DNA of 47,174 nt from an uncultured Candidatus Saccharibacteria bacterium (lineage in GTDB: Bacteria > Patescibacteriota > Saccharimonadia > Saccharimonadales > Saccharimonadaceae): assembly GCA_964522475.1 (NCBI GenBank), contig CAZFVK010000001.1:5168-52341 (forward strand), in the 5' to 3' direction. Below the pieces are notes generated by a model. The model was not told the origin of the DNA. It was given only the letters and a program-made list of their open reading frames with translations, and ran no database searches. The translations under genes were made by a program, and so were the position numbers. Positions 26,685 through 47,174 of the stretch are shown here, piece after piece (within the stretch, counting starts at the first letter, position 1; every line of letters starts with the position of its first letter).

Positions 26685-26772
26685 GATTTAGATAACGTAT
26701 TTTTTCATTAAGACCTTTTGTAGAAATTGCTCTTCTCTCCCCACCATCCTTCAAGAACTCTGTGTCATAGTG

Positions 26773-27011
26773 AATGTATTAAGAGCTTGATACTTTAGCG
26801 GATGTAGAGGCCATACTAGGAGGCTTGAACACACCGCACGTAGACCCCAGCGTAGCGGCCGCTGCCGCCGGTATATAGGCTACTACCATCGTAACGCAGA
26901 TGGTACCGCCACGCACCATTATAGGTAGTACTGCCCCACCAGTACCCGCGCGTAGACTCAAGGCGCAGCGTACCATTGTCGTAATACCCGCCCAGGACTG
27001 GGGAAAAGCTA
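26773..27011 (-). repeat. Variable-repeat-like cassette copy A (FISUMP/CLec C-terminus plus 43-nt tail)
   Basis: The reverse complement aligns with 46924-47174; the first 31 nt are identical and the post-stop tail is 42/43 identical. Confidence 0.9.
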
Positions 27012-27037
27012 GTGACGTCTCTTTGGCTATCTATTTC
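26816..27037 (-). pseudogene. 5'-truncated FISUMP-domain (Fibrobacter major paralogous, CLec-fold) fragment
   Basis: IDSQRDVTSFSPVLGGYY...GYWWGST...RYAGVYVRCVQAS*. There is no room for a gene body because the divergent tylF promoter lies ~35 bp upstream. Confidence 0.7.
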
Positions 27038-27088
27038 CACGATGTTCTTGCCTCTTGAGATGAGGCCGGTGTGGTATAATAGGGGAGC

Positions 27089-33212: not shown

Positions 33213-33602
33213 ATGAAAAAGTTACTAATTAGAGTAATTCTTCCACTATTAATTTGTGGAGCTTTGGCAGGTGTAAGTGTAGCTAACGCTACGGGGGCTT
33301 TTGCGACTACTCTTAGTGAGGGAGCTGAGGCGGCAAGGTGCGATGGCTGCCCAGAGAACCTGTTTGGTGACGCTGGCGTATTTAAGCAGGTGACTAACAT
33401 TGTGCTTTATATTGTTGGTGTGATTGCGGTGATTATGTTAATTATCGGTGGTATTAAATATGTAGTATCGGGTGGTGATGCGAAGAAAGTAACTGATGCG
33501 AAGAACACCGTGCTTTATGCGATTATTGGTTTGATTATTGCTTTTCTAGCGTTTGCGATTGTGAATTTCGTTATTACTTCATTACCAACAGCATCTAACT
33601 AG
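33213..33602 (+). CDS. TrbC/VirB2-like pilin
   Basis: Signal peptide; GGIKYVVSGGDAKKVTDAKNTVLYAIIGL between two hydrophobic helices. Confidence 0.85.
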   Translation: MKKLLIRVILPLLICGALAGVSVANATGAFATTLSEGAEAARCDGCPENLFGDAGVFKQVTNIVLYIVGVIAVIMLIIGGIKYVVSGGDAKKVTDAKNTVLYAIIGLIIAFLAFAIVNFVITSLPTASN

Positions 33603-34281
33603 AGTAGGCTAGTAGACAGATGATGAATTTTTTGGCTCCGGCGGATTGTAATTTTTTGAGGGCAGAAGTAACGGAAGCGCCGGTGGTCCAGACATCGTCT
33701 AGGAGGATATAGGTTTTTGTTCCATCAATTTTGGCTTTGGGGTTGATGCTATAAGCGGATTTGGCTTGGGAAAGACGTTTTTCTCGATTGGAGCCAACTT
33801 GGGTGGTGTTTTGATTCCTGATTAAAATTTTTTCTACGGTGAGGTTGCGGATTTTGGCGAGATTTTTAGCGATTTTGTAGGTGTGGTCAAAACCGCGGGT
33901 GCGGATGTGGTGGGTGGCGGTGGGGAGGGGAACTAAGACGGAATTTGTTGGTAAATTTTGGGGTAGAGAAGCATCCAGAAGTTCGGTCAGGGGGCGGGCT
34001 AGAGCACGGGTGGAATAGTATTTATAATCATGGATAAGAGAGCCGAGCAAGCCACTGCGGTCAGAGACTACGTAAATAGGTGGCAAATCAGGGCAATGTT
34101 TGCAAAGGGTGGAGGATTTTTCTTTTTTACAATTAGGACATATTTTGGAGTGATTTTTTAAAATGTAATTTTTACAACGCTCGCATAATGGTTCACCGAT
34201 TAATCCACAACCCTTACAAGAGTGAGGAAATATTAAATCTAAAAGGCCGGGAAATGTTGTATTTTTTACAATAAAAGCCAT
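33595..34281 (-). CDS. comF: ComF family protein (zinc ribbon + PRTase), likely start 34281
   Basis: LLDLIFPHSCKGC, CxxC pairs, RGFDH and LLDDVWTTGAS. Confidence 0.9.
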   Translation of the reverse strand: MAFIVKNTTFPGLLDLIFPHSCKGCGLIGEPLCERCKNYILKNHSKICPNCKKEKSSTLCKHCPDLPPIYVVSDRSGLLGSLIHDYKYYSTRALARPLTELLDASLPQNLPTNSVLVPLPTATHHIRTRGFDHTYKIAKNLAKIRNLTVEKILIRNQNTTQVGSNREKRLSQAKSAYSINPKAKIDGTKTYILLDDVWTTGASVTSALKKLQSAGAKKFIICLLAYSS

Positions 34282-34345
34282 ATTACTCTTGATTTTACTA
34301 CGAAAGTGGTTTATAATAAAGCATAACAATATAAGTGGAGGAAAT

Positions 34346-34855
34346 ATGGCTCGTACAAATAGCGAAGATTTGTTAGACGATGACCTAGCTGCAGCGTTCC
34401 TGAATGAGGATGGTGGCGACGCAGCAGCGGCTCCAACTGTAACGGACGTTACGGAGGAGTTGGTTCAAGAAGAATCTAACGAACCAGCAACTGAAGATGA
34501 GTGGGTGAGCGAAACCGACGATTTTCCTGGGCAGCTAGCAGTAGATGTCTATGAAACGGCGGATAAATTAGTAGTAAAAGCAAGGACAGCAGGGATTTCG
34601 AAGTCTGATCTTGATGTCAGTATTGCGGATAATATCTTGACGATATCTGGCATATTGTCTGGCGGTGAAGACGAACAAACTACTCGGTGGCATATCCAAG
34701 AGTGTTATTGGGGCGAATTCTCCAGGATGATTGCTCTTCCTGTACAGGTGCGTGAAGATGAGAATAGTGTAAAAGCTGAACTAAAAGACGGTGTTCTCAC
34801 TATTACCTTCGAAAAGGAACAGGTAGAAGCGCCGAAAAGAATTACCGTTCAATAG
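34346..34855 (+). CDS. Hsp20/alpha-crystallin small heat-shock protein (likely start 34346)
   Basis: GQLAVDVYET, QECYWGEFSR and AELKDGVLTITF; GGAGG RBS. Confidence 0.92.
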   Translation: MARTNSEDLLDDDLAAAFLNEDGGDAAAAPTVTDVTEELVQEESNEPATEDEWVSETDDFPGQLAVDVYETADKLVVKARTAGISKSDLDVSIADNILTISGILSGGEDEQTTRWHIQECYWGEFSRMIALPVQVREDENSVKAELKDGVLTITFEKEQVEAPKRITVQ

Positions 34856-34891
34856 AGAGTGGGCGAACAAAAAGGTTACATACATTAAATA

Positions 34892-34919
34892 AAAAATCGG
34901 GCTATTAAGCCCGATTTTT
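34892..34919. terminator. Bidirectional intrinsic terminator
   Basis: aaaaatcgggct-atta-agcccgattttt. Confidence 0.88.
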
Positions 34920-34938
34920 ACGTAATTTGTATTTATGA

Positions 34939-35229
34939 TTATTGATTGAGAATGCTTTTGATGACGAAATTAACAATGGCGAAAGCAAGTGCGCAAATAA
35001 TCAAACCAACTACGCCGTAGAGAATGGTCTTTTTGCCTTTTTCTACTTTGCCGGCATCACCAACGGAGGTCATGTAATTGATGCCACCGATGATAATGAC
35101 GATTACGCAGACGATACTGAGCACAGCAATGACAGCGTTGATGATAGAAGTGACATCGCTTTTGAGAGTATTGCTACCTACGGTATCGATTGATTGGCCA
35201 ACGGCAAATTTTGTAATTGCATTATTCAT
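34939..35229 (-). CDS. TrbC/VirB2-like pilin
   Basis: GGINYMTSVGDAGKVEKGKKTILYGVVGL...AFAIVNFV. Confidence 0.85.
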   Translation of the reverse strand: MNNAITKFAVGQSIDTVGSNTLKSDVTSIINAVIAVLSIVCVIVIIIGGINYMTSVGDAGKVEKGKKTILYGVVGLIICALAFAIVNFVIKSILNQ

Positions 35230-35231
35230 TT

Positions 35232-35561
35232 TTAGCTACCTAGTATGTTGTTAATAACGAAGTTGACGATAGCAAAAGCGAGTACACAAACTACTAAGCC
35301 GATAACGCCATAAAGGATGGTGTCTTTAGCTTTTTTAACCTTGCCAGCGTCACCAGATGAAGTCATGTAATTAATACCACCAATAATAATTACAATTACA
35401 CAGACGATACCGAGAACACCGATTACGGCGTTGATGATGGTTTTGATGTTGTCCCAGAGTGTGTCACTTCCATCTCCTACTACTTTTACATTCGTACCTA
35501 CGTTTTGTCTGCTGGTATTGGTGCTATTATTTGCAGCGAATTTTGTAATAATATCGTTCAT
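35232..35561 (-). CDS. TrbC/VirB2-like pilin
   Basis: GGINYMTSSGDAGKVKKAKDTILYGVIGL...AFAIVNFV. Confidence 0.85.
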   Translation of the reverse strand: MNDIITKFAANNSTNTSRQNVGTNVKVVGDGSDTLWDNIKTIINAVIGVLGIVCVIVIIIGGINYMTSSGDAGKVKKAKDTILYGVIGLVVCVLAFAIVNFVINNILGS

Positions 35562-35621
35562 TAATAAATCCTTTGTTAGTTAGTTTTATTTTACAACGTT
35601 TTTACTAAGAATACAATAGTT

Positions 35622-36029
35622 TTATTGATTGAGGAGGCCTTTGACGACGAAGTTGACGATGACGAAAGTAAGGGAGGCAATAATGAGACCGACAACGGCC
35701 CAGAGGATGGTCTTTTTGGCTTTTTCGATTTTGCCGGGGTCACCAGCGGATGTCATATAGTTGACACCGCCGACTACGATAAAAATAGCGGCGACTATAC
35801 CGAGGATACCGATGACGGCGCTAATGATGTCGGTGATGGCATTTTTTAATTCGACAGTAGAGCCACCGCCACAGCCGTTGGCTTCTTTGATTGCTTGAGC
35901 GACGGGTTGGTCACAAATATCATTTGCGTCGGCATAAACGGCGGAAGTGCTTAAAAATGCTAAGCTGGGTGTCAAGAAAAAAGTGGTGGTAATTATAATA
36001 TTAATGATTTTAGGTATTTTGGTCTTCAT
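35622..36029 (-). CDS. TrbC/VirB2-like pilin
   Basis: Signal peptide; GGVNYMTSAGDPGKIEKAKKTILWAVVGL. Confidence 0.85.
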   Translation of the reverse strand: MKTKIPKIINIIITTTFFLTPSLAFLSTSAVYADANDICDQPVAQAIKEANGCGGGSTVELKNAITDIISAVIGILGIVAAIFIVVGGVNYMTSAGDPGKIEKAKKTILWAVVGLIIASLTFVIVNFVVKGLLNQ

Positions 36030-36780
36030 ATGACTCCTTGTTTATATTAGCGATAACGGAATTATTGACGTAAGAATTGGAATTGGCGTCTCGGATGATA
36101 TTGGAGACAAAGGCAGTGATGATTTGGGCTAGGGCAAAAATAACGAGGCCGATAATAGCATAGAGGATGGTCTGTTTGGCTTTTTGAAGTTTGCCGGGAT
36201 CGCCAGCGGCAGTGATGTAGCCCCAGGCACCGATTAGAATAAAGGCAGCAGAGACCGCACCCATGATACCGCCGAGCCAGCTGATTAAATTGCTAACGAG
36301 ACTGGCTTGATTGGCACAGCTAGCTCCTGGCATAGCACAATCGCTAAGTCTGGCACTGCTGCCGGCGAGGGCGATACGGATGGCACTAAAAATAGTATAA
36401 GCAGAAATCACTATGGCGAGACCAATGAAAGCATGGATGAGGGTTTTTTTGCCGTTAGCAGCTTTGCCGGGGTCGCCAGCAGAGGTCATATAAAGGAAAC
36501 CGCCGTATATAACATAAAATAGTACAAGATATGAGGCGATGACGCTGATGTCGGTAAGGATATTGCTGGCAATGGTGGCAATACTTTCGACAAGATCATT
36601 TTCACTCTCGATTTTAGGAGCATTACAATCCCAGTTGGTCATACCGAGAAAATACACACAATCACTTCCGTCACCGTATTCTCTAGCAGCGGTTGGCGTG
36701 GAATTGGTAAAATTAACAGTGGCAGAAACAGTGGCAATAATCCCTAAGAAGACCAGAAATTTTTTGAGAAAATTCTTCAT
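36010..36780 (-). CDS. Tandem double-domain TrbC/VirB2-like pilin (likely start 36780)
   Basis: Two copies of the Y(M/I)T(S/A)AGDPGK motif, each flanked by hydrophobic helices. Confidence 0.8.
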   Translation of the reverse strand: MKNFLKKFLVFLGIIATVSATVNFTNSTPTAAREYGDGSDCVYFLGMTNWDCNAPKIESENDLVESIATIASNILTDISVIASYLVLFYVIYGGFLYMTSAGDPGKAANGKKTLIHAFIGLAIVISAYTIFSAIRIALAGSSARLSDCAMPGASCANQASLVSNLISWLGGIMGAVSAAFILIGAWGYITAAGDPGKLQKAKQTILYAIIGLVIFALAQIITAFVSNIIRDANSNSYVNNSVIANINKESYEDQNT

Positions 36781-36837
36781 ATATTTACATAATAGCATAA
36801 ACCTACAAAAAAGCCAATAAAATAAGAGGTTTTAACA

Positions 36838-36866
36838 TTGACAAAAACGCTTATGTGTGCTATAAT
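36838..36866 (+). promoter_or_regulatory. Perfect sigma70 promoter for the T4SS-like operon
   Basis: TTGACA(36838)-N17-TATAAT(36861), with TG extension. Confidence 0.88.
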
Positions 36867-36896
36867 TGTTAGAAGCCTAATTGGAAGGCGATTTTT

Positions 36897-39800
36897 ATGA
36901 TGATAAGAAGAAAGGACCTAAAAACAGGTATCAGGTGGAAGTTTTTTGGGTGCTTTTTTGCTGTCTTCTTGATGCTTTCCAGCCTCTTTGGAACTTTGCC
37001 TGGTACAGGGGTGGATGTATACGCAGAGCCAGAAGAGGGAACTTCGGAATCTAGTGGGGTATCTTGTCAGGATAGCTTAGGGTCTTTAGGTTGGCTAGTG
37101 TGTCCTACGACAGGCAAAATATCCGAGGCGGTAGATTTCTTGTATGACAAGATAGAAGATGTACTAGTAATTAATCCGGTAGAAGCGGAAGATGGTTCAC
37201 CGGTGTATGAGATTTGGAAATATTTCCAAGGGGTAACGAACATAGTATTTATTATATTCTTACTCGTAATTGTGTTTTCACAGATTACGGGGCTTGGGAT
37301 AAATAACTATGGGATAAAGAAAGCTTTGCCGAAGTTGATTATTGCGGCAGTACTGGTGAATCTGTCGTTTTATATTTGTTCTCTAGCGGTAGATGTGTCG
37401 AATATATTTGGTGGCAGTATAAGGGGGCTTTTAGAATCGGTGGAAACATCGGCAGGGGTAGGGATGGAAGCTGGGACGGTGAGTGGGGCAAACCTTGCGG
37501 AGATGTATACGGCACTTGCTAGTGGGACAGCTCTCTCAATTGGTGGTGCAGTAATAGCTTTTGAAACTGGAGCGATTTGGATGATGATCCCAATGGCTTT
37601 AGGTGCTTTGGTATCGGTAGTAATAGGTTTAATTACGATTGCGATGCGCCAAGCGGTAGTAACACTTCTCATAATGATTGCGCCGCTGGCGATGGTAGCG
37701 TATATTTTGCCAAATACAGAGCAGTGGTTTAAAAAATGGAAACAGCTGTTGTTCCAGATGTTAATATTTTATCCAGCATTTTCTTTGCTATTTGGAGCGT
37801 CCTCTCTTGCGGGATGGGCAATTATTGTGTCGTCTAACAATGGATTTGGAATATTAATTGGGACGGCGGTACAGATATTCCCGTTATTCTTCTCTTGGAG
37901 TTTGATGAAGATGTCTGGTACAATACTTGGTACAATCAACTCCAAGCTCAACGCTCTCGCAAGTAAGCCGCTAGCTGGAGTGAATAGTTGGGCAGAATCG
38001 CATAGGGAATTGTCGCGCCAAAAACATTTGGCATCACCAAAGGCGTTTACTCCTTCAATGAGATTACAACAGTACTTGTCTGATCGGAAGATTGCAAGAG
38101 AAGAAGAAACTAGGGAACATGCGGAGACAGTGAAAAACAGAGGCTTAGCTTATGCGGCGATGAGGAACTATAACCGCAACGGAACTCCGTCAAAGGATGG
38201 TGAGGAATCATATGAAGCACAAGCAAGGAATGCGAGATACCAGAGGCAGATTCTTAGACATAAGAATAATATGAATAAGGGTATGGGGCAACTGGAGGCG
38301 CTCAAAGAAAATGGCACGGCTGCTCAAAGAGCAAGGCTATTAGAACTTGATGGGGCTAATGTAGAGGCATTTGATACGCTCAAGATGGAACAGGCGCGTG
38401 GCGAAATGATTGATTATAAGAACGCTAAGGGCTTTCATCAGAGAATGCAAGATGCTATTAATGTACATATGGATGATACTACTGGTAAGACGAAGAATGC
38501 GAATGGTGTAATGGAGAGCAGATTGAATTATAAACGTCACTTTGATATGGGTAGCGTGAGAGAGGCACAGGCGCGGACGAGATACTCTGAACTATCTAAA
38601 ATTATGGAAGGCAATATACAGGATGCGCAATATGCAGAGGCTACTGCGGCACACGCTTATGATACGCAGAATAAGATTGTGGCGACTAAGATGCAGAAAA
38701 TGGCAGATCTGACTCCGCCGACACAAGATTTGGTATATAGAATGAATGAGTTTACCAAAAATAAGGGTGCGGCGGAAAATATTGATCTAATTATACCGGC
38801 TTTGAAGGCTTTGAATATGCGGGGTGATACGGACTTGGTTAAGGCCCAGATAGATAATATATTAAATAAGAACATTGGCGGTGGGGTGGAGCTTGGTACG
38901 CACGCTTCGCAATCTTTGGCATCGTTCTTGATGTTTGATGTGAAAGATTCGGATCCGTGGCTCCGACGGTTTGGTAAATACATTAATCTTGAGACGGCGA
39001 GAATTTATAATAGTAATGATAGAAAGAATATGGAATTAACTTATGATGAATATGTGAAAGGCTATCATATTGAGCAAGACGCGACGACTGGACAGCCAGT
39101 AAAGATGTATGCGAAGAAAGGTATGAAGGAGCTTATGGAAGGTACGTCGCTTGATAACGTGGAAAGAACGGCGTTTGCTAGTTTTGACGATAGCCTTAAG
39201 CAGGCTTATAGTTATGTAGGTGATGACGGTAAGCGACATCTCGATACAGAAGAATATTTGCGTAAGCGTGAAGAGATTCAAACGGCGGTTGGGCCACAGT
39301 TTATTTCGGCGTCACTAAAATATCTGTCTGGTAGTGAACAGTTGGTGAATGCGGTAAGTTTCTTAACTGGGTATAATCACAAGCAAAAGAAAGATAGTAC
39401 TGGTAATATAATGTTAGATAAAAATGGCGATCCGCTTTATGAATGGACGGCCTCGTGGGAGGATAAAAACGGTATTTTTGCGGATGATCCGGAAACGATT
39501 AGAAAGTATTTCAATAAAAAAGCTTTGCAATATGTGACAGACCAGACACCGTCACAAATTCTGAGTATGCGTTCTGATTATTATGCGCCAATGCTTAACC
39601 ATTTGGCGATGGCGTATGAAGAGACTGATATGGAAGGCTGGACTGATGAGCAGGTTGCTGAACATGAAGAGTATATGAAGGAGCTTTCTGAAATTCAGAC
39701 TCGGTATGCTGATTTGCCGCCAGATGAAGCGAAGAAGAAGCGTGATATAGATAGAAAGAAGTTGAAAGACAGAATGGCTGGTGCACAGTTCAGACAGTTA

Positions 39801-40268
39801 CTTGACAGTAGAGGTAAACTCAATCAGATTTATAGAACAAGGCGTTCTGGTGCGGCGAACAATGCCAAGGACTGGCTCAGGAAATGGCTCGATCTTGATA
39901 ACGATGTGGCAATTACGATGAGACTAGATGAGGTTAGGAAGAAAGAAAAGGAAGAAATCAAAAAGGCTAGACAAGACAAACAGTCACAAGAGGGCGGTGA
40001 TACTTCTACGGCAGAAAGTAATAGAGTTTATACCGATGCGGATATAGCGGATTTTGTGTCGCATGTAGAGGATATGTGGCAAGATTTCAAGAGTGAGGAT
40101 GACGAGGTATTTTATGAGGAGTCTCACGACTATATTAAGAAAACTTTGAGTGCGGATAGTTATATTGTTAAGGAATATGAAAAGTATAGGGAAAATGAAC
40201 CGACTGCTGATAGCCATACGTTGAAGGACTATCTAGTTGACCTTTTGAGTGATCCTGAGAATTATTAA
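36897..40268 (+). CDS. Large membrane protein: VirB6/TrbL-like N-terminal TM domain plus ~770-aa soluble helical tail
   Basis: GWLVCP, KKALPKLIIAAVLVNLS and APLAMVAYILPNT...FKKW; first gene before PrgI/VirB4. Confidence 0.7.
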   Translation: MMIRRKDLKTGIRWKFFGCFFAVFLMLSSLFGTLPGTGVDVYAEPEEGTSESSGVSCQDSLGSLGWLVCPTTGKISEAVDFLYDKIEDVLVINPVEAEDGSPVYEIWKYFQGVTNIVFIIFLLVIVFSQITGLGINNYGIKKALPKLIIAAVLVNLSFYICSLAVDVSNIFGGSIRGLLESVETSAGVGMEAGTVSGANLAEMYTALASGTALSIGGAVIAFETGAIWMMIPMALGALVSVVIGLITIAMRQAVVTLLIMIAPLAMVAYILPNTEQWFKKWKQLLFQMLIFYPAFSLLFGASSLAGWAIIVSSNNGFGILIGTAVQIFPLFFSWSLMKMSGTILGTINSKLNALASKPLAGVNSWAESHRELSRQKHLASPKAFTPSMRLQQYLSDRKIAREEETREHAETVKNRGLAYAAMRNYNRNGTPSKDGEESYEAQARNARYQRQILRHKNNMNKGMGQLEALKENGTAAQRARLLELDGANVEAFDTLKMEQARGEMIDYKNAKGFHQRMQDAINVHMDDTTGKTKNANGVMESRLNYKRHFDMGSVREAQARTRYSELSKIMEGNIQDAQYAEATAAHAYDTQNKIVATKMQKMADLTPPTQDLVYRMNEFTKNKGAAENIDLIIPALKALNMRGDTDLVKAQIDNILNKNIGGGVELGTHASQSLASFLMFDVKDSDPWLRRFGKYINLETARIYNSNDRKNMELTYDEYVKGYHIEQDATTGQPVKMYAKKGMKELMEGTSLDNVERTAFASFDDSLKQAYSYVGDDGKRHLDTEEYLRKREEIQTAVGPQFISASLKYLSGSEQLVNAVSFLTGYNHKQKKDSTGNIMLDKNGDPLYEWTASWEDKNGIFADDPETIRKYFNKKALQYVTDQTPSQILSMRSDYYAPMLNHLAMAYEETDMEGWTDEQVAEHEEYMKELSEIQTRYADLPPDEAKKKRDIDRKKLKDRMAGAQFRQLLDSRGKLNQIYRTRRSGAANNAKDWLRKWLDLDNDVAITMRLDEVRKKEKEEIKKARQDKQSQEGGDTSTAESNRVYTDADIADFVSHVEDMWQDFKSEDDEVFYEESHDYIKKTLSADSYIVKEYEKYRENEPTADSHTLKDYLVDLLSDPENY

Positions 40269-40317
40269 ACTTTTAAACTAATCATAGAATTAAAGATGTT
40301 TGTGCTATAATATATAT

Positions 40318-41463
40318 ATGGCGCAATATAAGGTGCCTCAGGATGTTGAGGCGGACGACAAATTGCTCGGGCCGTTTAGTTTTCGTCAGTTTGTATATTT
40401 GATGATAGCTGGGGGCTTGGTTGCTACGGCAGTGGGATTATTTCAACTCTTTCCGATTTTGGCGATTATTCCAATTCCATTCGTAGTGTTTTTCTTGGCA
40501 CTAGCATTGCCTCTTAAAAAAGATCAACCGATGGAGACGTATCTTGCGGCGGTAGTGTCTTATTATTTAAAACCACATTCGAGGCATTGGATGCCAGGGC
40601 AAAAAGAGAATCCAATCATAATTACTGCACCAAAAATTGTAGAGCAGAAGCGGGCGCGGGATATTACGGGTGAAGAGGCAACGCATCGGTTGTCATTTCT
40701 TGCTGACATTGTAGATACGGAAGGCTATGCAATCAAAGGAGCGGGAGCGAGCCCTATGCGGGAAGATTTGATTGCGGAAGCGGAAGCAACGCCGGATATG
40801 TTTGAGACTTATCAATCTCAGGTGATTAATCGGGTGATTGACCAGGATAAAATGACGCGGCATCAAACGGCGGTGAAAGAGATGCAGGACGCGATTGCGA
40901 AGAATACTGTAAAAGCGGTACCAGAGAATAAGACAAATAGAGTATGGGGTGAGAAAGTAATTGAAAGACAAAGAATAACGAGGTCGGTGCCTACGCCTGA
41001 ACAGGTGCCTCAAAATGTATTCCAAGAAGCACCGGTACCAGTAGAAGCGGCGCCAGCTGTAATGGCACAACCGGAGCCAGCGGTGGTTCCTGAGACCCCA
41101 ACTGTACCAACTAGCATGGTAAATTTGAGAAGCAATGCGGTTTTGAAACCGGATGTAGATATTGATAATACAGACGTAGTGATTAGGCCGGAGATGGAGT
41201 CTATGAATGCTGCTAATAAAAAATTGAGAGTGCCTGGAGCGGAAAGATTTGGTGTAGAAATGGATGCTCAGGCAGGGATTGCTAGTTTGGCAGCGGGTCT
41301 TGGTACGAAGCCGACTTATACAAAAAAAGTTCCCACAAAACCAGTAAACGATAGTATAATGGAATTAGCAAATAATTCTGATTTTTCCGTTGCGACCATC
41401 GCGAAAGAAGCTAATAGAATCAATAGAAAGGAAAATGGCGAGATATTCGTTTCGCTGCATTAG
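40318..41463 (+). CDS. PrgI-family (VirB3-like) protein with an extended C-terminus (start moved from 40300)
   Basis: YKVPQDVEADDKLLGPFSFRQF, two TM segments and DQPMETY. Confidence 0.85.
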   Translation: MAQYKVPQDVEADDKLLGPFSFRQFVYLMIAGGLVATAVGLFQLFPILAIIPIPFVVFFLALALPLKKDQPMETYLAAVVSYYLKPHSRHWMPGQKENPIIITAPKIVEQKRARDITGEEATHRLSFLADIVDTEGYAIKGAGASPMREDLIAEAEATPDMFETYQSQVINRVIDQDKMTRHQTAVKEMQDAIAKNTVKAVPENKTNRVWGEKVIERQRITRSVPTPEQVPQNVFQEAPVPVEAAPAVMAQPEPAVVPETPTVPTSMVNLRSNAVLKPDVDIDNTDVVIRPEMESMNAANKKLRVPGAERFGVEMDAQAGIASLAAGLGTKPTYTKKVPTKPVNDSIMELANNSDFSVATIAKEANRINRKENGEIFVSLH

Positions 41464-41466
41464 AGT

Positions 41467-42363
41467 ATGAATCCACAACAGCAGATGCCACAACAACAGC
41501 CGACGCCTCAGCAGCCGATGATGCAAATGCCTGGTGGTCAGCCAGTGCCGATGCAGCAGATGGCACCGGTGCAGCAGCCAATGGCGCAAATGCCAAATAC
41601 GCAGCCGGCACAACCTAACGGAGCTACTCCTCAACAGTCAGTGCAACCGGCGGCGATTCCGGTATCTAAGGATAATCCTTCTTCAACGCAAGCAACTTTG
41701 ATGATTTCGGAACTTCGGGATAATATCGTGATTATGAAGGATGGATCTTTTAGAGCAGTGGTGGCTTGTAAGTCGATTAACTTTGACCTGATGAGCGATG
41801 TAGAGCGGGAGGCGGTAGAATATTCGTATCAGAATTTCTTGAATTCGCTAGATTTTACGACGCAGATTATGGTGAGAAGCCAAAGAGTAGATATTGGACC
41901 ATACCTTTCCAGATTAACGGAGATTCGGCGAAATAATGATAATATGCTACTCGGCGTATTGATGGATGATTACATTAACTTTATTGAGATTTTGTCGCAA
42001 GAAGCTAATATTATGGATAAATCATTCTTCATCGTGGTGCCATATTATAGTTCTCCAGATGAGGAAAAAAATCTTCAACAGACAAAGAACTTTTTTAAAG
42101 CTTTTTCTGGAGTGAAAGATTTGCCGATTACCAAGATTGATCGACCAACTTACGACAAAGCTCTGACTGAACTTACGAATAGAGTAGAAAGAGTAGTATC
42201 CGGGCTATTTCAGATTGGGATTCATTCGGTGAGACTGAATACGAGGGAACTTGCGCAGCTGTATTATAACTTTAATAATCCAGACACGGCAGTGAGAGAA
42301 CCTTTGGTGGATTTCTCGGAAGTAGCGACGATGTATGTTAAAAAAGGAGAAAAGAATGCCTAG
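41467..42363 (+). CDS. T4SS-associated protein (VirB4/TraC N-terminal-like) with a Q/P/M-rich leader
   Basis: STQ..L.I.E...N.VI.KDG, INFDLMS and YQNFLNSLDF; lies between PrgI and VirB4. Confidence 0.7.
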   Translation: MNPQQQMPQQQPTPQQPMMQMPGGQPVPMQQMAPVQQPMAQMPNTQPAQPNGATPQQSVQPAAIPVSKDNPSSTQATLMISELRDNIVIMKDGSFRAVVACKSINFDLMSDVEREAVEYSYQNFLNSLDFTTQIMVRSQRVDIGPYLSRLTEIRRNNDNMLLGVLMDDYINFIEILSQEANIMDKSFFIVVPYYSSPDEEKNLQQTKNFFKAFSGVKDLPITKIDRPTYDKALTELTNRVERVVSGLFQIGIHSVRLNTRELAQLYYNFNNPDTAVREPLVDFSEVATMYVKKGEKNA

Positions 42364-44170
42364 GAAGAAGAAAAAGGGAAAGTTGACTGCGGCGGAGATT
42401 GCGGCACAAGCTGAGGCTTTGGAACTTGCAGAAATCCAAAAAGCGTTTGAGCAAGGTACGAATACTTTACGTGATTTGATTTCGCCGTCGGCAATTGAAA
42501 TTCATTCAGATTATTTTAGGCTGGGTACTAAGTATGGGCGGACATTGTATGTGTATGGCTATCCGCGTACACTTTTTACGGGATGGATTTCGCCGATTAT
42601 CAATATTGATGAAGTGATTGACGTATCGATGTATATTTATCCGGTGGAGTCGGCGGTGGTGATGAAAAACTTGCGGACGAAGGCGACGCAGCTTGAAGCA
42701 TCGATGAATCTTAATACTGAGAAGGGTAAAATTAGGGATCCGGAGCTAGAGGCAGCTCTCGCTGATACTGAGGAATTACGCGACCAACTTCAGGTCGGGG
42801 CAGAGAGGTTTTTCCGCTTTGGGCTTTATGTAACGATTTGGGGAGATTCGCTTGAGGAATTAAAGTTTGTCCAACAAAAGATTGAGACGATTTTTGGCCA
42901 GCAGATGATTTTCTCAAAAGTGGCCAATTCACAGCAAGAGCAGGGGCTAAATTCGGCAATGCCACAATGTACGGATCAATTACAGATTCGGCGGAATATG
43001 AATACTGGTGCGATTTCGACATCTTTCCCGTTTACCTCAGCAGATCTTACTCAGGATAAGGGGATTTTGTATGGCATTAATATGCATAATAACGGCTTAG
43101 TGATTTTTGATAGATTCTCGCTTGAAAATGCCAATATGGTGGTGTTTGCGAAGTCTGGTGCTGGTAAATCGTTTACAGTAAAATTGGAGGCATTACGTTC
43201 AATGATGACGGGGGCGGAAGTGATTATTATCGATCCAGAAAACGAGTACCAAAAACTATCTGATGCGGTGGGCGGATCTTATATTCGTTTGTCTCTAAAC
43301 TCGGACGTAAGGGTAAATCCGTTTGATCTTCCGAAAATCGTAGACTCGGAGGACGCTAATGATGCTCTCAAAGCTAATTTGGTAACTCTGCACGGGTTAT
43401 TTAGGCTGATGCTTGGTGGAGTGGGAAACACTGGACAAGCGGCTTTGACTCCAAACGAAGAAGCAGATCTAGACCAGGCTTTGATTGATACTTATGCTCG
43501 GGCGGGGATTACTTCAGACCCCTTGACACATCAATCGCCAGCTCCGACGATTATGAATTTGTACGATACACTTTTACATATGGGTGGAAGTGGGCCATCT
43601 CTCGCACAGAGACTTAGAAAATATACCACGGGGACTTTTGCGGGGATTTTCTCACAACAGTCTAATATTGACATTAATAACCAGATGGTGGTGTTCAATA
43701 TTCGGGATCTTGAGGATGAACTGAGGCCGGTGGCGATGTATATCGTGCTATCTCATATTTGGAATATTGTGCGGGCGAATCAGAAAAAACGCCTTCTGAT
43801 TGTGGATGAGGCGTGGCAGTTAATGCAGTATGAAGATTCGGCGAATTTCTTGTTCTCACTCGCGAAGCGCGCACGTAAATACTACTTGGGACTCACGACG
43901 ATTACGCAGGATGTAGAAGACTTTATGGGGATGAAGATGGGTCGGGCGATTGTGGCGAACTCGTCGATGCAGCTACTTCTCAAACAGTCAGCGTCGGCGG
44001 TGGATGTGCTGGCGGATGTGTTTAAGCTCACCGAAGAAGAGAGAAGAAGGCTGGCAAACTTCCCGGTGGGGCAGGGATTATTCTTTGCGGGGCAGAATCA
44101 CGTACATATTCAAGTGATTGCATCGGAAACAGAGGAAAGACTGATTACTACAAATCCTAACCAAAAGTAG
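42356..44170 (+). CDS. virB4: VirB4-like type IV secretion ATPase (likely start 42356)
   Basis: Walker A AKSGAGKS, IIDPENEY, Walker B LIVDEAW, KRARKY and TQD. Confidence 0.9.
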   Translation: MPRKKKKGKLTAAEIAAQAEALELAEIQKAFEQGTNTLRDLISPSAIEIHSDYFRLGTKYGRTLYVYGYPRTLFTGWISPIINIDEVIDVSMYIYPVESAVVMKNLRTKATQLEASMNLNTEKGKIRDPELEAALADTEELRDQLQVGAERFFRFGLYVTIWGDSLEELKFVQQKIETIFGQQMIFSKVANSQQEQGLNSAMPQCTDQLQIRRNMNTGAISTSFPFTSADLTQDKGILYGINMHNNGLVIFDRFSLENANMVVFAKSGAGKSFTVKLEALRSMMTGAEVIIIDPENEYQKLSDAVGGSYIRLSLNSDVRVNPFDLPKIVDSEDANDALKANLVTLHGLFRLMLGGVGNTGQAALTPNEEADLDQALIDTYARAGITSDPLTHQSPAPTIMNLYDTLLHMGGSGPSLAQRLRKYTTGTFAGIFSQQSNIDINNQMVVFNIRDLEDELRPVAMYIVLSHIWNIVRANQKKRLLIVDEAWQLMQYEDSANFLFSLAKRARKYYLGLTTITQDVEDFMGMKMGRAIVANSSMQLLLKQSASAVDVLADVFKLTEEERRRLANFPVGQGLFFAGQNHVHIQVIASETEERLITTNPNQK

Positions 44171-44175
44171 AATGT

Positions 44176-44242
44176 AGAAGGCAAAAGATATTTTTAACAG
44201 CCCTTGTTACACGAGGCTGTTAAAAATACCTTTTTGCCTTCT
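44176..44242. repeat. ~67-bp imperfect hairpin overlapping the next gene's -35
   Basis: agaaggcaaaagatatttttaacagcc pairs with ggctgttaaaaatacctttttgccttct; TTGCCT(44234)-N17-TATAAT(44257). Confidence 0.85.
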
Positions 44243-44268
44243 TTAATTTTTTCTGGTATAATATAGGT

Positions 44269-45531
44269 ATGAAGGTAAAGAGGTTGCTGGTTGGTTTGGT
44301 GGCGATTTTTTTGACGCTTTTGCCGGTTGATGGTGTTTTTGCGAAGAAGGTGATTGATGAGGATACACTTTATTATTATGGACTCAATGGGATTTATCAT
44401 TACAATGGAGCGAAGGAAAAATGTACAGCGGAAGAAGGAGGAAATCAGAATTACGCTGGGGCGACGGTGTGGAGTGATGTAGAGCTTGAAGCGATTGGTC
44501 AGAATAAGGCGATTTATAAAGAAGCGGCAGATAAGTATGATTTTCCGTGGCAAGTGCTCGCAGTTTTTCATAGTATGGAGACTTCACTTCGGAGATACAA
44601 CCCAGCTAATGGACAGGGAATTTATCAGCTCTATTCCTACACGGCCGGTGGGAGTAATGAAAATGCGTTTACTCCGGGGCCAGTGGATGAGGCAGAGTTT
44701 AAAAGACAGACCATGATTGCGGCAGAAGTGATTAGCTCTTCGGTAGGAGATCTTAATGAATCAGATAATGTGAAGAAGCTATTTTTCAAGTTTAACGGGA
44801 TGTCTTCAAAATATATACAGAAGGCGCTCGCTATGGGATTTTCGGAGACGGAAGCACAGAATGGGGAAGGCTCCCCTTATGTGATGAATCGGTATGACGC
44901 GAAGCGGGATCCTTCGAGCAGCGAGATGGATTCGCATTGGCCGGGAAGATATGTGAGGGATGGAGTGTATGATGCGAGCTCTACTTCAATGGTGTTTGGG
45001 GCGTTTGTAAAATATGAAGCTTTGGCTGGGAGTGTGAATTGTACGGACCATGGTGGTGAAATAGTGGAAACGGCTCTGTTATTATCTTGGGAAGGACATG
45101 GGCATAGTAAGGATGATCCAAAGCCGGAATATGTGGATGCAATGAAGGAAGTTGGGACGTATAATAGTCCATGTAGAAGCAGCGGAGATTGTGCGCCTAA
45201 GGGAGCTTCTTGTGACGTTTTTGTATCTACGGTGATGAGATATTCGGGGTCGGATCCGGATTTCCCGATGTTTAACCCGGCCGCACAGAAGAGCTACATG
45301 GAATCACATACGGATAAATATGTAAAGATAGATGCTCATGATGTGAGCGATTTACAAGCAGGTGATATTTTGGTGGCGGTAGATAATGGAAGGCATATTT
45401 ATTTGTATCTTGGTGATGGGATGCAAGCGTCGGCGTCGTATAATGATCGGACGGGTGAACATTTTTCGGGAGTGTATTTGTCGGATAATGGGGGGTCGAG
45501 ACATTATAGTGTATATAGGAGAACTAGTTAA
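44269..45531 (+). CDS. Secreted putative peptidoglycan hydrolase (lysozyme-like + CHAP/NlpC-like domains)
   Basis: Signal peptide; YKEAADKYDFPWQVLAVFHSMET...GQGIYQ; C-terminal SCDVFVS...AGDIL...RHIYLY Cys/His pair. Confidence 0.7.
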   Translation: MKVKRLLVGLVAIFLTLLPVDGVFAKKVIDEDTLYYYGLNGIYHYNGAKEKCTAEEGGNQNYAGATVWSDVELEAIGQNKAIYKEAADKYDFPWQVLAVFHSMETSLRRYNPANGQGIYQLYSYTAGGSNENAFTPGPVDEAEFKRQTMIAAEVISSSVGDLNESDNVKKLFFKFNGMSSKYIQKALAMGFSETEAQNGEGSPYVMNRYDAKRDPSSSEMDSHWPGRYVRDGVYDASSTSMVFGAFVKYEALAGSVNCTDHGGEIVETALLLSWEGHGHSKDDPKPEYVDAMKEVGTYNSPCRSSGDCAPKGASCDVFVSTVMRYSGSDPDFPMFNPAAQKSYMESHTDKYVKIDAHDVSDLQAGDILVAVDNGRHIYLYLGDGMQASASYNDRTGEHFSGVYLSDNGGSRHYSVYRRTS

Positions 45532-46546: not shown

Positions 46547-46786
46547 AAAGGTCTTAATAATATTTTTAGCAACGGTTGAACTTCGCTCCGGGATTTCAAA
46601 AATTATTTTAGGCGGGTCTTCACCTAAATTATCGGACAATTCTAATGGTACGAACTTTATAAAGTTTACCTAACTAGATAAAGTTATCTACACTCCACGC
46701 TGACAGTTTAGGATTCAGACCCGTAAAATAATTTTTAAACTCTCGGGCTCGTTCAAAATGTTGCTAAAAATACCATTAAGACCTTT
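46547..46786. repeat. 240-bp foldback element with ~85-bp imperfect arms and AAAGGTCTTAAT/ATTAAGACCTTT termini (MITE-like)
   Basis: 46547-46633 pairs with 46702-46786; the core has palindromes at 46653-46666 and 46675-46690. Confidence 0.9.
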
Positions 46787-46789
46787 CAT

Positions 46790-47131
46790 AACACGCTCTC
46801 ACCCTCTACGACCTCGTCTACCACTACAGCAACCCAATCCATCTGTCCTAAGGGCTGGACTTTGCCTGCCAAAACACAGATAGACAGTCTAAGTGGAGGA
46901 TCTAGCAGTACTACTTATGTTGGTAGCTTTTCCCCAGTCCTGGGCGGGTATTACTACAATAGTACGCTGCGCAGTGAGTCTACGAACGGGCTCTGGTGGA
47001 GCTCTATGGCAGTTAGTGACTCGCTACGATGTCGCCTGTATTATGATGGTAACAAGCTATATAGCATTACCAGTACCAGTGGCGGCAGCCGCAACACTGG
47101 GTTCTACGTGCGGTGTATCCAGGCCTCCTAG
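46790..47131 (+). pseudogene. 5'-truncated FISUMP-domain (CLec-fold) fragment
   Basis: In-frame NTLSPSTTSSTTTATQSICPKGWTLP...SFSPVLGGYY...GLWWSS...GFYVRCIQAS*. There is an in-frame TAA at 46736 and no ATG before the domain. Confidence 0.78.
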
Positions 47132-47174
47132 TATGGTCTCTACATCCGCTAAAGTATCAAGCTCTTAATACATT
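46924..47174 (+). repeat. Variable-repeat-like cassette copy B
   Basis: Homologous to 26773-27011 in inverted orientation; 12 nt longer. Confidence 0.9.

Follow-up and report, generated by a model that had tools for sequence, protein, structure and literature searches.

Why should the variable end of a lectin-like protein lie twice on one contig, in opposite orientations and cut off from the rest of its gene? This question is raised by a 47,174-nucleotide stretch of an uncultured Candidatus Saccharibacteria bacterium (GenBank assembly GCA_964522475.1, contig CAZFVK010000001.1; hereafter the window, G000:C1:5168-52341). G000 is our label for the source genome, a metagenome bin of 1.05 Mb in 124 contigs (87% complete, 4% contamination), and C-numbers denote contigs of its assembly. 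The two homologous segments, copy A (26773-27011, minus strand) and copy B (46924-47174, plus strand), lie on opposite strands and are 76% identical over 251 nt. An earlier note, made from the window alone, had suggested as one possibility that they belong to a dispersed set of silent variable cassettes that recombine into an expressed adhesin gene, with a mutation signature like that of a diversity-generating retroelement (DGR). This is the reading that our data support best, with transfer into the expressed gene as the step that we infer. Both copies belong to a genome-wide set of start-less cassettes, which probably exchanges segments with a DGR-mutated expressed gene through homologous recombination, storing its variants and likely returning them. 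The feature is real, and is a new combination of two known systems.

The mutation pattern of copies A and B and its source

Alignment and translation confirmed that both copies encode the C-terminus of a FISUMP domain, with the motifs named in the earlier note (ICPKGWTLP in copy B, WWxS and YVRC in both). Copy B matches TIGR02145 with an E value of 3e-6, under the family cut-off because it is a fragment. On recount, the differences between A and B include 12 at codon position 3, as reported, and 33 instead of 31 at positions 1 and 2; for the first 27 codons, the count of 11 differences with none at position 3 was exact. The remark that no reverse transcriptase (RT) or template repeat (TR) is present holds for the window. 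However, the assembly does contain a full DGR, with RT, Avd-fold protein and AAY-rich TR, on contig C2.

In all features that could be checked, this locus is a DGR. It contains a 732-aa target, a 309-aa accessory gene and a 385-aa RT, with the AAY-rich TR on the opposite strand. The RT matches PF00078 above the cut-off, has no stop and carries a YVDD motif. The target differs from the TR at 19 of 57 adenines and at none of the 139 other bases. TR and C2 target have in common an extension of 25 nt (96% identity) that is like the initiation of mutagenic homing (IMH) element, and a perfect 11-bp hairpin is located at the C2 target only; extension and stem-loop are absent from all cassettes. The accessory protein has no sequence match in Pfam, NCBIfam or PDB. 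By predicted fold it matches Avd: its C-terminal bundle aligns with Bordetella Avd (4dwl) at a TM score of 0.83 on the target structure and an rmsd of 2.4 over 108 residues, with a weak E value of 0.07. It also contains an extra N-terminal alpha/beta domain of ~180 aa (gene at L004:2278-3207), which is kept in five aligned copies. This domain, which has no database match, has a pattern that may be that of the MutS mismatch-binding domain. The protein could thus be a fused form of MSL and Avd, two accessory types that PMC5758913 describes as separate genes. Loci like C2, with related RTs, occur in other members of the genus. At G000:C9:22688-24903 (L005) lies another DGR, which has an RT, an accessory gene and a TR of its own, and one multi-domain FISUMP gene on C41 (L007) contains a variable-region-like segment that resembles the C9 TR by eye.

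Comparison with the actual TR confirmed the DGR origin of the mutation pattern. Over a 183-nt core, copy A differs from the TR at 27 of 55 adenines and 3 of 128 other bases (P 6e-14), and copy B at 26 of 55 and 21 of 128, respectively (P 3e-5). Template adenines account for only 22 of 45 A-versus-B differences; the share is low because B is an older, more diverged copy.

Number, classes and layout of the cassettes

The earlier note knew of two cassettes; the genome contains 41. Iterative BLAST returned 42 places, split hits were merged, four diverged copies were added by tblastn, and the count of 41 leaves out the TR, the C2 target and one full-length gene on C13. The cassettes lie on 26 contigs; 13 cassettes are mid-contig and 28 are less than 1 kb from a contig end. 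They match the C-terminal part of one or the other of the two FISUMP domains of a master protein, P0018: 22 belong to class I, which matches domain 2, and 17 to class II, which matches domain 1, while two have eroded ends. Class I ends with CVQAS, a stop codon and an invariant tail of 76 nt, whereas class II reads through into a linker, likewise invariant, toward the second FISUMP domain. At the 3' side, homology to the TR covers ~26 nt up to the stop in class I and less in class II. Cassettes occur singly, in tandem, tail-to-head or inverted, often beside other palindromic repeats. The repeat blocks total 24.5 kb, ~2% of the assembly, a figure that takes in neighbouring repeats. Two cassette arrays, at G000:C35:9140-9400 and C65:3064-3300, adjoin related genes that, to judge by a motif, may resemble those of ORF6N-domain proteins.

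P0018 is 981 residues in length, with an N-terminal hydrophobic segment, two FISUMP domains and the class II linker, and is predicted to be surface-anchored. Against TIGR02145 (cut-off 41.65), the master scores 76.5 and the C2 target 54.7. The model of the target domain (pLDDT 90.9) points to a C-type-lectin fold: most of its top 50 structural matches are of this fold, with TaqVP among the best, and the best Z values, middling ones, are those of PvdO (8.0), TvpA (6.8) and Mtd (5.2). A Foldseek search with the lectin domain gave no match at an E value of 0.001.

On C25, the orthologue of P0018 breaks off with the contig, ~21 codons short of where the cassettes start. We examined several sequencing runs (X1, X2, X4 and X8) as assembled contigs, not reads; X1 is possibly the source sample, and X1 and X2 possibly belong to the source study. 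Contigs of X1, X2 and X4 extend the C25 gene end by only 101, 89 and 107 nt, about one word length into the repeat. We also compared the genomes of two related species, G076 and G265 (the latter 78% complete), for which part of the library loci was fetched. The G076 orthologue ends at residue 578, where the class II cassettes of G076 start. In G265, the orthologue has an exact 141-nt overlap with a unit made of domain 1, linker and domain 2 (the runner-up among the other fetched loci matches at 121 of 141), and this unit then runs into the cassette tail. The tail thus probably forms the 3' flank of the G265 master, and by this parallel the same is likely for the 76-nt tail of class I in G000. 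Scans of metagenomes and genome collections found no complete master locus, only distant relatives or a cut N-terminal half; the complete two-domain forms are P0018 and, by the 141-nt overlap, that of G265. The cassette library explains such breaks of adhesin genes in short-read assemblies.

In the window, cassettes A and B and the neighbouring repeat are arranged as follows.

26733..27068, minus strand: entire repeat block of cassette A, class I, one of 4 sister copies in the short-head deletion family
27012..27068, minus strand: head of cassette A; beginning of domain 2 of the master (YDL..RGKN), joined by a family-wide deletion to the loop before the variable region
26816..27011, minus strand: cassette A variable region, TR-homologous, with stop codon
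26740..26815, minus strand: cassette A invariant tail, 76 nt, 3' of the stop; 98-100% identity among class I cassettes
46802..47174, plus strand: entire block of cassette B, class I, one of 6 sister copies in the second deletion family; reaches the contig end
46802..46923, plus strand: cassette B head and framework (TTTATQSICPKGWTLP...STTYVG)
46924..47131, plus strand: variable region of cassette B; contains a stop codon and an in-frame insertion of 12 nt
47132..47174, plus strand: cassette B invariant tail, first 43 nt; the contig ends here
46561..46772, no strand: imperfect palindromic intergenic element in the gap between dnaJ and cassette B; a neighbour, not part of the cassette

Cassette A is located between uvrA, assigned by motifs, and a TylF-family gene, and its head directly adjoins the -10 box of the latter. 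Cassette B follows dnaJ, likewise assigned by motifs, and then the palindrome, of which an identical 212-nt copy is present on C64; several further palindromic repeat families adjoin cassettes across the genome. The loop preceding the B variable region matches that of the DGR-adjacent target, and the variable region itself has a 173-nt identical tract in common with a cassette on C23. Neither copy has an ATG-started gene body or a signal segment, although each contains an in-frame TTG. Copy B stops with the contig, inside the repeated tail; its 5' truncation is internal to the contig. At the 5' junction of A, contigs of three runs, of which two come from other studies, run across and reach 34 (X1), 54 (X4) and 31 nt (X8) into the cassette. 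The 3' junction is spanned by X1 only, with ~30 nt inside the repeat, just under our 31-nt rule. Summed contig depth over the cassette is far above that of the flanks in four runs, which is not a copy number.

As complete remote target genes of a DGR, the cassettes fail. Their open frames, at most 275 aa, consist of flank plus fragment without signal segment, and promoter and terminator scans of the cassettes gave chance level compared to shuffles. The cassettes are presumably silent. They are not plain cDNA insertions either, because none of the 41 carries the TR flank; direct insertion of TR cDNA was rejected for this reason. The ectopic integration of DGR products considered in the earlier note is likewise not supported as a direct event, as all cassettes have gene-derived sequence upstream of the TR-homologous part.

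Selection, inflow of variable regions and probable exchange

Taken together, the 41 cassettes differ from the TR at 996 of 2246 adenines (44%) and 939 of 5217 other bases (18%). In the 21 least diverged copies, the values are 475/1155 (41%) and 137/2682 (5%), while 20 of the 41 have more than 13 non-adenine differences. All 41 variable regions have lengths that are multiples of 3, and 40 are stop-free; the sole exception is owing to a deletion that fuses it into the tail. In neutral simulations with the same substitution counts, which ignore shared ancestry, a mean of 24.6 (minimum 16) or 21.4 (minimum 13) cassettes contained stops. The framework upstream of the TR-homologous part is near saturation at synonymous sites (pS 0.61), with a dN/dS of 0.20. 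With frames intact and such a ratio, the simple decay of remote targets that the earlier note held as its mundane alternative is rejected. Mutation is very uneven among adenines that share a local context (A[A]TG, P 5e-4; C[A]AC, P 1.5e-4), which suggests selection at the protein level; the variable regions may therefore have been selected as protein, and hence have passed through an expressed gene.

Fifteen cassettes form families of 4, 5 and 6 copies, each defined by a common large internal deletion, and A and B belong to two of these three families. Within these families, the variable regions differ by 30-84 nt. Since sister copies share the deletion but not the variable region, the variable regions were replaced after duplication, and the families therefore record inflow into cassettes. 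Members of A's family have 9-14 derived states in common, compared to 7 for the median pair. The framework loops form a patchwork, with a neighbouring-site compatibility above all 1000 permutations in both alignments (16 and 26 sequences).

These observations fit a cycle in which the DGR would mutate the variable tip of an expressed FISUMP/C-type-lectin gene, the resulting variants would be copied into the intergenic, start-less cassettes, and cassette variants would likely go back into the expressed gene, the exchange presumably being carried out by RecA-type recombination. RecA, RuvC and DprA motifs are present in the source genome; RuvB, RecG, MutS, MutL and RadA were not found with strict motifs in this 87% complete genome. 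Neither integrase nor resolvase matched on the master contigs, and G076 has one tyrosine recombinase and no match for a serine recombinase. The return step is hinted at by the alleles P0011 and P0012, which differ at 12 of 556 residues upstream and at 14 of 103 in the cassette-covered non-TR part (P 4e-6); 11 of these 14 residues are present in G076 cassettes. Such an excess was observed in two of four allele pairs, both including P0011. The master protein may serve as an adhesin for the host bacterium, or as a surface antigen under phage or host pressure.

We also entertain, with slightly more doubt than belief, a two-tier diversifier with memory, in which the DGR would invent variants, reciprocal recombination would file them into spreading head-to-tail sites, and the cell would recall and reshuffle them. 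It would resemble the pairing of hypermutation and pseudogene conversion in bird antibody genes.

Related species carry the same design. FISUMP matches were found in 140 of 201 genomes of the genus, mostly in long genes, with short ones in G076. With the TR as query, 19 of 369 genomes matched, and the candidates numbered 41 in G000, 39 in G076 and 52 in G265, with 9 in the next best. G076 gave 36 DNA matches and G265 gave 65 protein matches. A DNA search with cassette A in 60 relatives gave no match; the other libraries surfaced by protein and TR searches only. As in G000, both classes are present in G076 and in G265; each of these genomes has an invariant tail specific to it, cassettes joined tail-to-head, and a master gene that breaks off where its contig ends. 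Against the G000 TR, the differences are 534/1210 at adenines and 480/2816 elsewhere in G076 (22 ungapped copies), and 710/1650 and 747/3840, respectively, in G265 (30 copies). In G076, 37 of 37 cassettes are in frame, in a set picked by open-frame pattern. Some sites are common to G000 and G076, including dnaJ with reversed orientation; others are filled in one genome and empty in the other. The class I tails of the three species differ, yet a purine-rich GGAT motif lies close to the end of each. It is there that tails are joined to heads or to other tails, which suggests a preferred break point. Upstream of thrS, G076:C40 (L008) has a FISUMP gene and G167:C11 (L026) a FISUMP coding region, but the site is empty in G000; therefore, whole target genes also come and go. 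At G076:C38 (L030:103-320 and 2541-2727), the variable region of the RT-adjacent target is seemingly identical to its TR, being either unmutated or collapsed in assembly.

Several observations weigh against an exchange with the expressed gene. No transfer was seen at the level of clones or reads, the runs being contigs. The 3' half of the master is not assembled in G000, and the G265 join is an assembly overlap in a genome that also contains long start-less linker units. The allele pairs P0016/P0026 (24/558 versus 5/103, P 0.79) and P0017/P0016 (P 0.22) have no excess in the cassette part, and that of P0011/P0012 could result from allelic exchange between strains or from loop selection. Among the variable regions, the only long derived tract is that between B and C23, fewer than frequent cassette-to-cassette conversion predicts. 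Many class I heads contain out-of-frame deletions, which speaks for some decay. The context test was significant in only two of seven groups. None of the three species has cysteine at AAY codons (0/356, 0/364 and 0/499); however, with the RT of BPP-1, just 8 of 14 residues exceed 1% (PMC12875486, section 7), so that this absence may come from polymerase bias, not selection, and was downgraded as proof of the latter. In G076, the TR next to the RT belongs to a different type, and no TR matching the cassettes was found; the 78% complete G265 yielded no RT.

Other explanations account for part of these data. Pieces of the expressed gene might be copied one way to intergenic sites and refreshed there by conversion or in-place retrohoming, with nothing returning, which we consider unlikely. 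A self-spreading repeat family of this kind would agree with the fixed 5' start and fixed tail end, the head-to-tail junctions in all three species, the shared deletion families, the clustering with palindromic repeats and the resemblance of the variable regions to independent DGR products; residual retrohoming without stem-loop has been reported (PMC12875486). However, saturated synonymous divergence, a dN/dS of 0.2 and the lack of stops are hard to keep in unused DNA, site-specific residue preferences imply passage through protein, and class II lacks nearly all of the 3' TR homology. By eye, no terminal inverted repeats or target duplications were evident at three filled/empty sites, in genomes that are ~80% identical in DNA; Y1 and DDE transposases were not searched for. 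Expression by rearrangement, with single crossovers fusing the N-terminal half of the master onto a cassette in place and inverting or moving parts of the chromosome, like a dispersed shufflon, is improbable. The cassettes do occur in both orientations, the dnaJ site is opposite in G000 and G076, and the flank past the G265 master unit corresponds to a cassette site in G076 and to an empty inverted region in G000. But no dedicated recombinase is shared, with none on the master contigs; segment-level mosaics fit conversion better, and many cassettes have out-of-frame heads.

That the cassettes are decayed remote targets, or an assembly artefact of strain variants, is very improbable. The bin is fragmented and slightly contaminated, most cassettes lie near contig ends, and about half are well diverged at non-adenine positions. 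Nevertheless, gene bodies and stops are both missing, the mid-contig cassettes remain, the 5' junction of A recurs in other studies, and the design recurs in two independently assembled species, each with a tail of its own and with sites that are orthologous in part. The notion that the cassettes are small expressed remote DGR targets, that is, stand-alone lectin modules, is hardly credible. Intact frames and purifying selection would suit it, short targets with only the lectin domain exist (PMC5758913), and 10 of 41 cassettes have an upstream in-frame ATG within 420 nt. These ATGs, however, vary in position and belong to flanks, junctions or internal residues, without signal segment. The cassettes also lack model residues 1-79, including three predicted strands, many lack more, and promoters are not in excess over shuffles. 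We thus retain exchange between a silent library and the expressed gene as the probable reading.

Comparison with known systems and other loci

Like the DGRs of Bordetella BPP-1 (mtd/avd/TR/brt), Treponema denticola (remote targets) and Thiohalocapsa PB-PSB1, the present system has an RT, an Avd-fold protein and an AAY-rich TR, with an adenine-specific variable region at a C-type-lectin-fold C-terminus and, at the adjacent target, an IMH-like extension and hairpin. Different from DGR targets, the cassettes lack gene body, extension and hairpin, and also vary outside the TR. Their start-less nature, with conserved arms around variable loops and segmental patchwork, is that of the donors of Neisseria pilE/pilS, Borrelia vlsE/vls and Treponema pallidum tprK. 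However, the donors in those three systems are clustered, with mostly one-way transfer into the expressed gene, whereas here they are dispersed, gained and lost, and take in new DGR-type variable regions. Different from the clustered invertible cassettes of a shufflon, those here are dispersed, and no integrase or resolvase match lies on the master contigs. Other members of the genus have many full-length FISUMP/Fib_succ_major paralogues (TIGR02145, PF09603), where the three species have fragments instead.

The cassettes also resemble MgPar/mgpBC of Mycoplasma genitalium, where dispersed, non-functional mosaic fragments of an adhesin gene, of varied order and truncation, occupy a few percent of a minimal genome, and both reciprocal and non-reciprocal exchange are described (PMC5745988). 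No DGR is described there, the loci number 9 compared to dozens here, and exchange is shown, whereas we deduce it. DGRs are described as overwriting their target without record, and the survey of 372 elements counted at most 7 non-adjacent or 8 tandem targets per element (PMC5758913), compared to 41 variable-region copies here. Multiple or remote targets and duplication of target C-termini are covered by PMC5758913, PMC8144416, PMC10907252, PMC12386605, PMC6182149 and bioRxiv 2024.11.15.621889. In the literature consulted, we found no start-less DGR library and no coupling of a DGR to silent cassettes; work on DGRs of the Candidate Phyla Radiation (Paul et al. 2017) may list such copies, and RT-proximity DGR finders miss them. 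An episymbiont of roughly 1 Mb thus devotes ~2% of its assembly to dozens of selected-looking variants. If the exchange is real, DGR output would be storable and recallable, loops outside the template would also be diversified, and gut Saccharibacteria would have, in their FISUMP proteins, strong candidates for factors that recognise the host.

G000:C36 (L001) carries a third RT, which is accompanied by a short Avd-like gene and has an amidase and an integrase as neighbours; it looks like a phage DGR from another host and is probably contamination of the bin. In the window, positions 1460-23729 hold a block of surface-glycan genes, among them those of the rhamnose pathway and genes for several glycosyltransferases, a WsaF-like protein and an ABC exporter. 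Positions 33213-45531 hold a type IV secretion system (T4SS)-like cluster with five T4SS pilin genes, a VirB6/TrbL-like protein of 1123 aa, PrgI, a VirB4-like pair and a 420-aa gene, among which comF-like and Hsp20 genes are interleaved.
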